The notes under the pieces: model-generated | Database searches by the model: none | What the model was told of the DNA's origin: nothing | What the model saw: the letters and a program-made list of their open reading frames with translations, nothing else | Made by a program: the position numbers and the translations under genes | Shown here: positions 777 to 40,954 of the stretch, piece by piece | Layout of the letters: every line of letters begins with the position of its first letter | Position numbering within the stretch: the first letter of the stretch is position 1 | Origin: Escherichia coli | Lineage (GTDB): Bacteria > Pseudomonadota > Gammaproteobacteria > Enterobacterales > Enterobacteriaceae | NCBI RefSeq assembly: GCF_003334255.1 | Contig: NZ_QOWU01000008.1 | DNA: 64,000 bases | Strand: one strand, 5' to 3'

Positions 777-791
777 TGGCATGATTCTTGT
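777..791 (+). promoter_or_regulatory. candidate sigma54 (-24/-12) promoter for pspG: TGGCAT-N5-TTGT
   Basis: Motif TGGCATGATTCTTGT about 37 bp upstream of the pspG ATG; GG..GT spacing as in the pspA sigma54 promoter; an IHF-like motif AATCAATAGATTA sits at 760..772. Confidence 0.45.
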
Positions 792-827
792 AATGCCAGC
801 AAGAGATTTCATATTTGGGAGAGCATC

Positions 828-35094: not shown

Positions 35095-37242
35095 TTACGC
35101 CAGTGCCGCTTCGCGCAGGCGAGTTTTCAACTTGTTGTACTCGTCAATCACGTACTGCTCGGCGGCGCGCTGATCGGCGATCGGCTCGACGCGAACGGCG
35201 CAGTATTTGTACTCCGGCGTTTTCGTAATCGGGCTTAAGTTTTCGGTAACCAGCTCGTTACAGGCACCAATCCACCACTGGTAGGTCATGTAAATCGCCC
35301 CTTTGTTCGGACGATCGCTGACCTGCGCACGGGTGATAATTTTGCCTTTACGCGAGTGCACCCAAACCAATGCCTCATCTTCAATACCCAGACGTTTGGC
35401 GTCTTCGGTATTGATTTGTGCGTAGCCAGGTTCATCAGCCAGCGCCGCCAGTGCCGCACAGTTACCGGTCATCGAACGGCAAGAGTAGTGACCAACTTCA
35501 CGCACCGTTGACAGTACCATCGGGTACTCGTCGGTGAGTTTGTCGATTGGCGCTACCCAGTCGCAGGTGAAGAACTGCGCCAGACCGTTCGGGGTATCAA
35601 ACTTCTCTTTAAACAGATAAGAAGTCCCCTGATCGGCATCTGAAGTATCGCGGCAAGGCCACTGAATGAAGCCCAGTTCGCCCATTTTCTCGTAAGTCGC
35701 ACCGTAGAAATCCGGGCACAGATGACGCAACTCATCCCAGATCTCCTGGGTGTTGTTGTAGTGCATCGGATAACCCATACGGGTGGCGATTTCACTGATG
35801 ATTTGCCAGTCCGTTTTCAGATCCCATTTCGGTTCAACCGCCTTGAAGAAACGCTGGAAGCCACGGTCAGCCGCAGTAAACACGCCTTCATGCTCGCCCC
35901 ACGACGTTGACGGTAAAATAACATCCGCCGCCGACGCGGTTTTGGTCATAAAGATGTCCTGAACGATAACCAGTTCCAGATCTTCAAAGGCTTTACGTAC
36001 TGCCGACAGCTCCGCGTCAGTTTGTAGCGGATCTTCGCCCATAATGTACGCGGCACGCACTTCGCCATGCGCTGCGCGGTGCGGCAGCTCGCTGATGCGA
36101 TAGCCGGTATGCGCTGGCAGGCTTTCCACGCCCCAGGCTTTGGCGAATTTCTCGCGGTTAGCCGGATCTTTCACGTACTGGTATCCCGGATACGTATCCG
36201 GCAGCGCGCCCATATCGCAGGCACCCTGAACGTTGTTCTGACCACGAACCGGGTTAACACCCGCATGCGGCTTACCGAGGTTACCGGTCAGCATCGCGAG
36301 GCTGGTCAGAGAACGCACGGTTTCCACGCCCTGGTAGAACTGGGTTACACCCATGCCCCACAGGATGGCGGCGCTTTTCGCCTGGGCATACATCCGTGCC
36401 GCCTGACGAATCTCACTGGCGCTGACGCCGGTGATATCTTCAACCGACTCCGGCGTGTAGCCTTCAACGATTTTACGATACTCTTCAAAGCCTTCTGTAC
36501 GTGAAGCGACGAACGCTTTGTCGTACAGATTTTCTTCAATAATGACATGGCCCATCGCATTCAACAGCGCGATGTTCGAGCCGTTTTTCAGTGCAATGTG
36601 CATGTCAGCAATGCGCGCGGTTTCAATTTTGCGCGGATCGCAGACGATAATTTTCGCCCCGTTACGTTTAGCGTTAATTACGTGATTCGCCACGATTGGG
36701 TGGGAATCCGCCGGGTTGTACCCGAAAACGAACACTAAATCGGTATTATCAATTTCGTTAATAGCATTGCTCATTGCGCCATTACCGACCGATTGGTGCA
36801 GACCTGCAACCGATGGGCCGTGTCAGACACGAGCGCAGCAGTCAACGTTATTGGTACCAATAACGGCGCGCGCAAATTTTTGCATTACATAGTTGGTTTC
36901 GTTACCCGTACCACGCGAGGAGCCGGTCGTCTGGATGGCATCCGGACCGTACTTCTCTTTGATGGCGCTCAGGCGCTCGGCAACGTAATTCAGTGCCTCA
37001 TCCCAGGAAACAGGTTCGAGTTTGCCGCCACGCTGGCGACGGATCATGGGGGTTTTCAGGCGCGGGGTCAGGATCTGGGTATCGTTAATGAAGTCCCAGC
37101 CATAATAACCCTTCAGACACAGGGTACCCTGGTTGGTTTTCCCCTGCGCTGCCTCCGCCCGGACGATTTTGCCGTTATCGACGACCAGGTTGATTTTGCA
37201 ACCTGATGCGCAATAGGGGCAAACCGTGACGACTTTTTTCAT
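35095..37242 (-). CDS. fdhF: formate dehydrogenase H, selenocysteine-containing molybdoenzyme (715 aa)
   Basis: Track ORFs 36823..37242 and 35095..36774 are one reading frame joined by TGA at 36823..36825; N-terminal Fe-S motif CPYCASGC; 2148 nt is 716 codons. Confidence 0.95.
36780..36822 (-). promoter_or_regulatory. SECIS recoding element directly 3' of the fdhF UGA codon (extent approximate)
   Basis: Bacterial SECIS lies immediately downstream of the Sec codon (established); the stretch after TGA is GC-rich and hairpin-prone. Confidence 0.65.
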
Positions 37243-37293
37243 CGGTCTCGCTCCAGTTAATCAAATCACGCATACGCGCTCTCGACTACAGTA

Positions 37294-37309
37294 TGCATCT
37301 TTTATGCCA
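37294..37309 (-). promoter_or_regulatory. sigma54 (-24/-12) promoter of fdhF: TGGCAT-N5-ATGCA
   Basis: Reverse complement of 37294..37309 is TGGCATAAAAGATGCA, about 50 bp upstream of the fdhF ATG; inverted TGACGAAA-type motifs at 37360..37410 are a candidate FhlA UAS. Confidence 0.7.
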
Positions 37310-37439
37310 CATTTTATGTGGGGTCATTCCCTGATATTACGGGCACTATTTATTCAAAACTCTGACGAAAAACAGGCTGTCGTCAGTTTTGACGTGACGA
37401 AACGAAATACCGCGTGACAGCCATCACGCGGCAGACATT

Positions 37440-38906
37440 TTATTTTTTCTCGACGACGGGACCTGCCTGATACCCGCCGCCCAGCGATTTCATCAACTGA
37501 ATGCTTTGGATCACCCGGCGGCTGTCCAGCATCAGTAATGACATCTCTTCGGCAAGCACTGGCAACCGGGCTTCGGTGGCCTGTAAGCGGCTGGTTAAGC
37601 CGCGCTGATAGGCGGCCTCGGCAGCGCGCTGGGTAAAGCGCGTGGCTTCCACGCGTTCAGCCTGCATTTCTCGCTCGTCGTTGAGCGTTTGCAGACGCGT
37701 GCCGTTGACGGCAACGTCACGCACCGCGTTCAGTACTGACTGGTTGTAACGTTCAATCATCATGTTGCTGGCGGCGCGCGTGCCTTCGAGATTGGCATTC
37801 AACCGTCCACCGTCAAACAGCGGCAATTTCAGACCCGGGATGAAGTTGAACTGGCGACTGGTTTTTTTGAATAAGGTATGCAGATGGATGGAGTCCAGAC
37901 CGAAAAACGCTTTGATATCAAAGCTCGGATAGAACAACGCCCGCGCGGAATCCACCTGATCTAATGACGCCTGAACATACCAGCGCATGGCTTGCAGATC
38001 CGGGCGTCTGGCGAGCAACTCATAAGAGAGTGTCGCCGGAATGCCGGTCTGGACTTGCGGTAATGCCACCGGTCTGATCTCCGGCATATCGCTGGCTCCC
38101 GCGCCAATCAATGCACGCAGAGATTCTCGCGTTTCGGTGATTTGCCCTTTGACGGCAACAATTTGTTTATCGACCGCCAGAATCTGTGCCCGCGCGCCGT
38201 GGAAAGGCACTTGCGCTTCCAGACCGTGCGCCACTTTACTCTGGTGCGCTTTCACCGCGTAATCAATCACATCGTGAGTTTGTTCTAACAGATCGAGCAT
38301 CTGATAGCTGGCCTGCATACTGTAATAAAGCTGCGCTACGCCCGTGGCCAGCGATAGCTCTACTGCTGCGGTTTCTGCCAGCGCGGCATTATGCGCGCCA
38401 ATGGCGGCGGCAACCGCTGAGCGATGCACACCCCACAAATCAAGATCCAGTCCGGCAAACAAACCTACTGTGGCTTCCGTATAGTACGGCCCGTCCATAC
38501 CCAGTGCTGGCGCATCCATTGAATAAGGGCTTAAAAAGCCGTTCGCCGAGACACGTTGGCGGTTGAGCATCCCTAACGCTGCGACCTGTAATTGTGAACC
38601 GGCATCTAACAAATCGGCCTGGGACTGCGCTTTTTCTTCCCGCAGTTTCGCTTCGGCGAGGGTGTGTGAACCACTTAGCGTCCGTTGGATCAGCGCATCC
38701 AGCTGCGGGTCATTGAGTTGTTTCCACCACTGCGCCTGCGGCCAGCCGGAGCTGGCAAGATGAATATCGTCGGCCAGTTTGATTTGTTCCGGTTTGAGCT
38801 GTTGATGAGGTGCAGAATCCTTACGTACCAGGGCACAGCCGGAAATCAGCGTCGTGCTGCCGAGAATGCTGCACAACAGCAGACGTGAAAGTTGACGATT
38901 GATCAT
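37440..38906 (-). CDS. mdtP: outer-membrane factor (TolC-like) of a tripartite efflux pump (488 aa)
   Basis: Lipoprotein signal (LISGCALV) and OMF-family repeats; last gene of the ytcA-mdtNOP cluster. Confidence 0.88.
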   Translation of the reverse strand: MINRQLSRLLLCSILGSTTLISGCALVRKDSAPHQQLKPEQIKLADDIHLASSGWPQAQWWKQLNDPQLDALIQRTLSGSHTLAEAKLREEKAQSQADLLDAGSQLQVAALGMLNRQRVSANGFLSPYSMDAPALGMDGPYYTEATVGLFAGLDLDLWGVHRSAVAAAIGAHNAALAETAAVELSLATGVAQLYYSMQASYQMLDLLEQTHDVIDYAVKAHQSKVAHGLEAQVPFHGARAQILAVDKQIVAVKGQITETRESLRALIGAGASDMPEIRPVALPQVQTGIPATLSYELLARRPDLQAMRWYVQASLDQVDSARALFYPSFDIKAFFGLDSIHLHTLFKKTSRQFNFIPGLKLPLFDGGRLNANLEGTRAASNMMIERYNQSVLNAVRDVAVNGTRLQTLNDEREMQAERVEATRFTQRAAEAAYQRGLTSRLQATEARLPVLAEEMSLLMLDSRRVIQSIQLMKSLGGGYQAGPVVEKK

Positions 38907-40954
38907 TGCGTGGCTCCTTGTGCCTGTTCCGTGGCGGGCGTTAATGCCGGGGCTGTCCAGTCTGGCAAGCGGGCGAAAAGCTGGCAGACGTGTTGCTCCT
39001 GTTTTAATAAGGTGGGCAGGATGGCCTGAGAGGCGGGTGTCTCTTCAAGCGTTATTTGAGGAGAACGGCTGAGTGCGGTTGCCAGACCGGCAGCGTATTT
39101 CTCCAGGGCGTCGGCAAACTGACCTGCTCTGTCCGGCTGTAGTGCGTTATCCAGCGCCTGCGCCGAGTTCCAGGTGGCATCCCAGGCGTGAAGAAGATCG
39201 CGGCCCTGACGAATAACCGTTTGCGAACGTTCAATCAGTAATGCGCGTTCTTCGCTGTCCAGTTGACGCTCCAGCGCCACGCGTTGGCACATCTCTTCAC
39301 AGGCATTAAACGCCGCATGCAGACCGATACGAATTTGCAGATAAGTGCGCAGAGCCGTGACTTCCTGCTGGCGTGGGATCCGCATTACTTTACTTAACAT
39401 ACCCAGCGTGCCAGCCAGTTTTTGCGGCAGTGTGCGCGCTTCACTTTCAGGCCAGACAAAGGTGTAAATCACCGCGGACACCACGGTACCAATGATGATA
39501 CCCAGGGCGCGATCGCGAATTTCCACCAGGTCGTACACTGGGCCAAAAACGTTTTCGAGCGTGGCGAGCGCGAAGGTGACCACCATCTGTGTGCCGATAT
39601 AAGAAGAGCGTTCAGAGCTGGTGGCAATCCATGCGCCCAACAGGAAAATCGGTGCCAGCACAAACAGCAATTCGACAATATTGTCCAGCCAGGGCATGAC
39701 CAGTAGCGTGAATAACAGCGCCAGAATCGCGCCGCAAAAGGCCCCGCCAAAACGCAGCACCATCTTCTGGTACGACGAACCGACATTTGGGTTAGCGACG
39801 ATCACGCATGTCAGCATACAGGTGTGAATGCCTTCCCAGTCCACGCCGCTGTAAAAGGTGTAACAGATCAAACAGGCGAGCAGCGTTTTTACCGCGTAGC
39901 GCATATAGTCTGGATTGGTAAAAGCATCGGCGGCCATTGATGGCGGTTTGGCTGCGGGCGTTGGCGGCGTATTCGGGTCCATCTGACCCAGTTGTAACAA
40001 CGTCTGGCAGATATTCTCCAGGTTACATTCCCGTGCCGCCATCGCTTCACTTTCACTGATCCGCCAGTCGCTTTGCCAGCACTGACCTTCAGCAACGGCA
40101 TGCTGCAGCTTGTTGATTTCTGAAGCTAATTTTTGTCGGAATTCAATAATTGCCTGAGAATCAGCAAAAGAGGTGGGATCGTAGCGATTCAGCGTCGAGT
40201 AAATGTAGGTTACCGTTGCCACGCAGCTTTGCCACCATGCGTTTTGAGTTCGCCAGTTGGCATCGTCCGCGAGGCAAAAGACATTGAGTTTTTGTAGCGC
40301 CAGCGCCTCTCTTTCAATCCGCGTTTCGGGTAGCGGTGCGAGGCTGTCTGTCAGGTGACTAATGGCATCATCAAGCCGATCATTAAGCGCCTGATGCATT
40401 TGCGAAATGGCACGACTGGGAAACCACAGCACGCCGATTAACGTCATCAGCAAGGTTGGATAGAGGCCAACAACGATACACCACAGCGTTAAGCGCACGA
40501 CCACTTCCGGATAGTCGAGCATGGCGGGGAAGGTTTGCCCGTAAATAGCGACAATGGCGACGGCGAAAAAGACCAGCCCCAAGCGATGGGTGCGCATCAA
40601 AAACATGCAGCCCATCAGGATCGGTCCGGCGATGATCAATCGGATCAACGGTTCGCCGTATGACCATTTGTAGATCAAAAACAGGCTGCCGATCTCCAGC
40701 ACCGTGGCAACCACAAACAAGATCGCGACAAATTTGGTGTAAAACGCGTTCGACTGAATACCGTAAAACAGCACTGCCAGCGATAACGCCACAAAAGGGA
40801 TCTCAAAGGTCATCGAGATCAGAATCACCAGCAGGCAGCCTACCCAGAGTTGCACGGTCTGTGGCACGCGACCTGGTCGCCGCTCGCTTAACTCTTCATG
40901 AAAGAACGCCAGCAGCCTGACCACCGGTAATGGCAGGGAGTTGAGCGCGCTCAT
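38903..40954 (-). CDS. mdtO: aromatic-acid-exporter-like inner-membrane efflux component (683 aa)
   Basis: Two hydrophobic bundles separated by a soluble domain; 4-bp overlap with mdtP. Confidence 0.85.
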   Translation of the reverse strand: MSALNSLPLPVVRLLAFFHEELSERRPGRVPQTVQLWVGCLLVILISMTFEIPFVALSLAVLFYGIQSNAFYTKFVAILFVVATVLEIGSLFLIYKWSYGEPLIRLIIAGPILMGCMFLMRTHRLGLVFFAVAIVAIYGQTFPAMLDYPEVVVRLTLWCIVVGLYPTLLMTLIGVLWFPSRAISQMHQALNDRLDDAISHLTDSLAPLPETRIEREALALQKLNVFCLADDANWRTQNAWWQSCVATVTYIYSTLNRYDPTSFADSQAIIEFRQKLASEINKLQHAVAEGQCWQSDWRISESEAMAARECNLENICQTLLQLGQMDPNTPPTPAAKPPSMAADAFTNPDYMRYAVKTLLACLICYTFYSGVDWEGIHTCMLTCVIVANPNVGSSYQKMVLRFGGAFCGAILALLFTLLVMPWLDNIVELLFVLAPIFLLGAWIATSSERSSYIGTQMVVTFALATLENVFGPVYDLVEIRDRALGIIIGTVVSAVIYTFVWPESEARTLPQKLAGTLGMLSKVMRIPRQQEVTALRTYLQIRIGLHAAFNACEEMCQRVALERQLDSEERALLIERSQTVIRQGRDLLHAWDATWNSAQALDNALQPDRAGQFADALEKYAAGLATALSRSPQITLEETPASQAILPTLLKQEQHVCQLFARLPDWTAPALTPATEQAQGATQ

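Follow-up and report, generated by a model that had tools for sequence, protein, structure and literature searches.

Sigma-54 promoter and probable FhlA enhancer in the mdtP-fdhF intergenic region of Escherichia coli: sequence elements, conservation and spacing

Introduction

How is the transcription of fdhF controlled, and can the elements responsible be recognised in the raw DNA upstream of the gene? These questions were raised by a 64-kb stretch of an Escherichia coli contig (NZ_QOWU01000008.1), analysed as a whole and referred to below as the window. According to the literature, fdhF belongs to the formate-FhlA regulon, its control by FhlA was recognised about 35 years ago, and FhlA binds upstream of the gene. 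A published consensus for FhlA binding is available (CATTTCGTACGAAATG). The intergenic region upstream of fdhF was therefore subjected to motif, matrix and comparative analysis, in which a sigma-54 promoter and an upstream enhancer were considered separately and weighed against other explanations of the same sequence.

Materials and methods

All positions refer to the window. A sigma-54 promoter was taken to have GG and GC exactly 10 bp apart in TGGCAC-N5-TTGCW and a high score with a published RpoN matrix, which was built from 186 sites and is printed in PMC7658346. The matrix replaced a loose search for TGGCAC-N5-TTGCA with up to two mismatches, which gave 22 matches vs 26.5 expected and was for this reason uninformative by itself. 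The transcription start was predicted as in Bonocora et al. 2015, who place it 19 bp beyond the centre of the motif; the resulting distance to fdhF is 41.

FhlA sites were searched with a published 14-mer FhlA matrix, with the 16-mer consensus and with counts of short half-sites. A 22-mer profile derived from fdhF orthologues was over-fitted and missed the hyc-hyp enhancer, and it was replaced by the half-site density counts. The comparative set consisted of 80 fdhF loci from different enterobacterial species (81 sequences with the window included), and 78 distinct upstream sequences were aligned.

Results

The fdhF coding sequence, for formate dehydrogenase H, occupies 35095..37242 on the minus strand according to the open reading frame list and the RefSeq annotation. 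The annotation is confirmed by a match to Rfam SECIS_2 (87 bits, 36776-36830, minus strand), which lies directly 3' of the in-frame TGA for selenocysteine, as expected; this TGA follows codon 139, and the downstream gene is fdhF. SECIS_2 scored above and SECIS_3 below the gathering score, and these models within fdhF were the only Rfam matches, with no family matching the fdhF 5' UTR or promoter region. The stop of mdtP is at 37440 and the ATG of fdhF at 37242, both on the minus strand, so that the region is the 197 bp between mdtP and fdhF. Over 1.2 kb around the promoter region, the sequence was 100% identical to that of K-12 MG1655, without a single sequence difference from the E. coli fdhF promoter and its FhlA-dependent upstream activator site (UAS), and this stretch was found in 5420 of the 5426 complete E. 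coli genomes, where the match covers annotated fdhF and mdtP. The 141 bp that span promoter and enhancer were present at an identity of at least 99% in 5295 E. coli records; no RefSeq feature is annotated on them, since promoters are left unmarked by the RefSeq pipeline.

A -24/-12 match about 50 bp upstream of the fdhF ATG had been proposed by the first-pass annotation, and it was recovered as TGGCATAAAAGATGCA at 37294..37309 on the minus strand, intergenic and pointing toward fdhF, with its 3' end 52 nt upstream of the A of the ATG (37242). The GG is at 37308-37307 (-25/-24) and the GC at 37296-37295 (-13/-12), which gives the exact 10-bp spacing. The window holds a single copy of the motif, and shuffles gave an expectation of 0. 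The scan with an RpoN weight matrix, which the same annotation had suggested as a check, gave 13.8 bits and rank 2 of about 128,000 window positions. The predicted transcription start lies at 37283 on the minus strand, 12 nt downstream of the -12 C, and would leave a 5' UTR of 41 nt.

Published data place sigma-54 on this element. In the ChIP-seq study of Bonocora et al. 2015, peak OS41 was assigned to fdhF with the minus-strand motif GTGGCATAAAAGATGCA, marked as experimentally confirmed in EcoCyc and given a predicted start 41 nt before the gene; TGGCATAAAAGATGCA is identical to this motif, and gene, orientation and mdtP neighbour also match. In genomic SELEX (Shimada et al. 2021), purified RpoN holoenzyme bound the fdhF-mdtP spacer in vitro. 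The orthologous Salmonella enterica gene (STM4285) carries TGGCATAAAACATGCATA, which differs from the E. coli element by one substitution in the spacer and was bound by sigma-54 in ChIP-chip; Salmonella fdhF is 29-fold sigma-54-dependent, and FhlA is named as its activator. From the published ChIP-seq, SELEX and Salmonella ChIP-chip, the -24/-12 element is occupied by sigma-54 holoenzyme. The first-pass annotation had named an incompatible mapped start as the refuting result; the ChIP-seq motif and the mark of experimental confirmation speak indirectly for a start compatible with this -12 element.

Occupancy of this kind could also mark a silent sigma-54 binding site, with fdhF transcribed from another promoter, and the best RpoN matrix match of the window is indeed intragenic. 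TGGCATAAAAGATGCA is instead intergenic and correctly oriented, with a predicted start 41 nt from the gene and the flag of an experimentally confirmed promoter. A simple scan of 37150-37550 returned 0 sigma-70-like promoter sites, Salmonella fdhF depends on sigma-54, and an RpoN match of at least 11.4 bits was located 37-70 nt before the ATG in 77 of the 80 fdhF loci, with the promoter kept as TGGCATAnAAnnTGCAT in 77 of the 80. We give the silent-site explanation next to no chance and treat TGGCATAAAAGATGCA as the fdhF promoter.

Two other RpoN matches in the window were recorded. The top match, TGGCAGACGTGTTGCT (38982-38997, plus strand, 14.9 bits), is antisense within the open reading frame 38903-40954 (mdtO); the main text of the ChIP-seq paper has no entry for it under mdtO/mdtP, yjcP/yjcQ or b4080/b4081, and it probably represents a weak or non-functional site within the gene. 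The fourth-ranked match, TGGCATGATTCTTGTA (777-792, plus strand, 13.2 bits), is intergenic and correctly oriented; it is the known sigma-54 promoter of pspG and matches ChIP-seq motif OS40 (Bonocora et al. 2015).

Upstream of the promoter, the first-pass annotation had pointed to inverted motifs at about 37360..37410 as candidate FhlA sites. Such motifs are present, and all of the elements it named, promoter included, fall within 37290-37420. On the plus strand, TGACGAAA occurs at 37363-37370 and 37395-37402, 32 bp apart and in equal orientation, and TCGTCA at 37380-37385 in the orientation opposite to this pair. On the gene strand the layout reads TGTCAC-N13-TTTCGTCA-CGTCA-AAAC-TGACG-ACAGCCTGTT-TTTCGTCA-G, in which TTTCGTCA, the reverse complement of TGACGAAA, includes the TTTCGT half of the FhlA consensus. 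This half-site is present three times in the fdhF upstream region. Five GTCA/TGAC cores can be counted in the array, at 37418, 37398, 37393, 37385 and 37366.

Three parts of the array can be distinguished on the minus strand. The UAS core, TTTCGTCA-CGTCA-AAAC-TGACG-A (37380..37402), covers -119 to -97 relative to the predicted start, with its palindrome centred at -104.5; the promoter-proximal block CTGTTTTTCGTCAG (37362..37375, -92 to -79) contains the second TTTCGTCA repeat; and a distal GTCAC half-site is at 37414..37418 (-135 to -131). Core and proximal blocks thus extend from -79 to -119 and the distal half-site from -131 to -135, all within about 70-150 bp upstream, where sigma-54 activators are located. 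The fdhF UAS was reportedly placed near -105 to -119 by Birkmann and Bock in 1989, which we take to equal 37388-37402.

Measured against the whole window, the array is singular as a cluster and goes far beyond what chance would give. The palindrome CGTCA-N4-TGACG (37381-37394) is unique, with 0.04 expected, and in no other part of the window do three TCGWCA hexamers fall within 45 bp. All windows of 60 bp with five to six YGWCR pentamers in the 64 kb were at 37340-37378, and the densest cluster of these motifs is the fdhF upstream region.

The scan with an FhlA weight matrix, likewise suggested by the first-pass annotation, was of mixed value. The GTCA-N4-TGAC core at 37381-37394 fits the published 14-mer matrix at 8.2 bits, yet it ranks only 99 in the window, and the matrix alone discriminated poorly. 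With the 16-mer consensus the best position in the enhancer agreed at 9 of 16 positions, a value equalled or exceeded by 0.6% of window positions. Because of this rank, this consensus score and the failure of the 22-mer profile at hyc-hyp, the sequence rules for FhlA binding must be regarded as loose. The proposal of FhlA sites is nevertheless supported by the TTTCGT half of the consensus, by the conservation footprint described below and by the FhlA binding upstream of fdhF known from the literature.

The moderate fit of the fdhF repeats to the FhlA matrix and consensus would also suit repeats bound mainly by a different regulator (HyfR, NarL or ModE), with FhlA acting elsewhere or indirectly. 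The literature lists fdhF as repressed by NarL and the regulon as secondarily activated by ModE, and it names HyfR, an FhlA paralogue, as a related enhancer-binding protein; against this, both binding upstream of fdhF and activation of the gene are ascribed to FhlA. Equivalent half-site clusters were also found at other FhlA-dependent promoters. In the K-12 upstream regions the number of YGWCR pentamers (TGTCA, CGTCA, TGACG, CGACA) per 60 bp was 6 for fdhF, 6 for hyc-hyp and 5 for hydN, and the hyfA upstream region was weaker with 3. The hyc-hyp and hydN regions share the strings TTTCGTC and TCGWCAC with fdhF, and their clusters are likewise upstream of a sigma-54 promoter, whereas the arrangement and spacing of their half-sites differ from those of fdhF, and the rigid orthologue profile misses hyc-hyp; unlike that of fdhF, the hycA-hypA enhancer serves divergent promoters. 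The effects of nitrate and oxygen on the formate regulon were reportedly found by Rossmann et al. in 1991 to act via formate levels. We consider binding mainly by a non-FhlA regulator very unlikely and continue with FhlA as the protein that recognises the repeats.

Directly upstream of the enhancer core lies the intrinsic terminator of mdtP (37408..37433, minus strand), identified by a terminator scan as an 11-bp stem with a 4-nt loop followed by TTTCGTTTCG; its RNA fold has -19.2 kcal/mol (z = -4.3). The terminator ends 6 nt before the enhancer core and contains the conserved distal GTCAC within the descending arm of its stem. The same stretch of DNA therefore appears to be both terminator stem and enhancer half-site, and we count the distal GTCAC as part of the enhancer by inference.

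This arrangement raises the question of whether the repeats have any enhancer role, or arose by chance or as a by-product of the 3' end of mdtP with its terminator. The distal GTCAC is inside the terminator stem, and short motifs such as TGACGAAA are individually not rare (6 copies in 64 kb vs 2.6 expected, 2 of the 6 in the fdhF enhancer). The core and proximal blocks, however, are downstream of the terminator, and promoter and enhancer core were both kept in 77 of the 81 sequences. A homologue of MdtP was found upstream of fdhF in only 14 of the 80 loci, which assigns the footprint to fdhF rather than to the adjacent gene or its terminator. Together with the cluster density, unique in 64 kb, and a spacing to the promoter that is fixed or moved by one helical turn, this makes an origin of the repeats without enhancer function extremely improbable, and the array is treated below as the fdhF enhancer.

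In the alignment, conservation was concentrated in sharp islands. The enhancer core is conserved as TTCGWCACGTCA-N4-TGWCGA (37402-37380, minus strand) in 77 of 81 sequences, and the proximal block as CTGnTTTTCGTCAG (37375-37362, minus strand), with columns at least 85-95% conserved and at a fixed 25-nt offset from the palindrome in 72 of 77 loci. A spacer block at 37341-37312, the -24/-12 element and the ribosome-binding region TTAACTGGAGC form the further islands. In 64 of 77 loci, the majority without mdtP, the distal half-site was present as GTCA[CT], 22-26 nt upstream of the palindrome. In Salmonella the fdhF region has minor substitutions, for example TTCGACAC for TTCGTCAC, and the S. enterica arizonae locus retains the enhancer blocks.

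Between the centre of the palindrome and the -24 GG lie 79.5 bp in 62 sequences, 80.5 bp in 7, 70.5 bp in 7 and 71.5 bp in 1. Unlike this spacing, the distance from the GG to the ATG ranged from 50 to 83 across loci. Shifts by only about one helical turn are what would be predicted for a looped contact between activator and polymerase that depends on the face of the helix.

A few loci deviate from this pattern. Those of Entomohabitans teleogrylli, Leclercia sp. 29361 and Enterobacter sp. BIGb0383 (L077, L081 and L084, at about 1350-1500) retain remnants of enhancer and spacer, with the -24/-12 element mutated or deleted, and that of Phytobacter massiliensis (L058) has a degenerate enhancer core, CGTCGCGTCAAATCTGGCGA. 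These four may be cases of regulatory decay.

Between enhancer and promoter, the conserved spacer block CGTAATATCAGG..ATGACCCCACATAAAA (CGTAAnATCAGG...ATACCCACAATAAAA) occupies 37312..37341 on the minus strand (-58 to -29) and forms an island across genera in the alignment of 78 sequences. A site for IHF was looked for in the block by eye, and just a weak partial match to WATCAANNNNTTR, with one mismatch, was seen; no IHF site was assigned. The literature lists IHF as an activator of hyc and hyp and not of fdhF.

Downstream of the predicted start, the fdhF 5' UTR (37243..37282, minus strand) contains the conserved ribosome-binding region at 37260-37250. A small 4-bp hairpin, GCGC-GUAU-GCGU (37279-37268, minus strand), would span +5 to +16 of the predicted leader and is supported by the folds of 48 distinct UTRs. 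Its pairing is kept in other genera by two-sided changes (CGCA/UGCG, GCA/UGC, GCG/CGC), and it is absent in the Enterobacter and Kosakonia lineages, which have leaders of 25-30 nt.

Discussion

The evidence makes us highly confident that the region is the control region of fdhF, made up of a sigma-54 promoter and a formate-responsive FhlA enhancer about 100 bp upstream. The elements, their singularity in the window, their conservation and their fixed helical phasing were observed in the sequences analysed here, while the occupancy by sigma-54 and the dependence of fdhF on FhlA and formate are taken from published papers.

On this basis, a sequence of events can be proposed. RNA polymerase with sigma-54 would sit on 37294-37309 as a closed complex that is unable to initiate alone. 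Formate-bound FhlA would occupy the array of (T)TTCGTCA, GTCA and TGAC half-sites from about -79 to -135 (37362-37418), although the contacts at individual half-sites are deduced from the motifs. By looping out the spacer of about 50 bp, FhlA could reach the polymerase and open the promoter by ATP hydrolysis, and transcription would then start near 37283, the exact nucleotide being predicted from the motif, to give a 41-nt leader. The same scheme is shared by glnAp2 with NtrC, norV with NorR and pspG with PspF, where a closed complex at -24/-12 is opened in an ATP-driven manner by an activator bound about 70-150 bp upstream and brought in by looping. The fdhF system differs from these in its activator, in its signal (formate) and in its enhancer sequence.

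The spacer block from -58 to -29 and the GTCAC embedded in the terminator could be uncharacterised parts of the fdhF enhancer, a suggestion that we regard as rather unlikely. If true, the spacer block could bind a DNA-bending or modulating protein that sets the geometry of the loop, and any such protein would fit an enhancer-promoter distance that changes in whole helical turns across genera.

The promoter and enhancer described here are the already known fdhF system itself and not a relative of it, and the finding as such is therefore already known. The additions made by this analysis are modest: the footprint across genera, the spacing quantised in single helical turns and the overlap of the distal half-site with the mdtP terminator. 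Since a real sigma-54 promoter and its enhancer were recognised from raw sequence, the locus is a useful positive control.

The region is a textbook one, which governs how the selenoprotein formate dehydrogenase H is made and, through it, the formation of hydrogen from formate. In the literature, fdhFp::lacZ is a standard formate reporter and a routine formate biosensor; when formate-responsive reporters are designed for other enterobacteria, the conservation footprint and the helical-turn spacing could serve as a guide.
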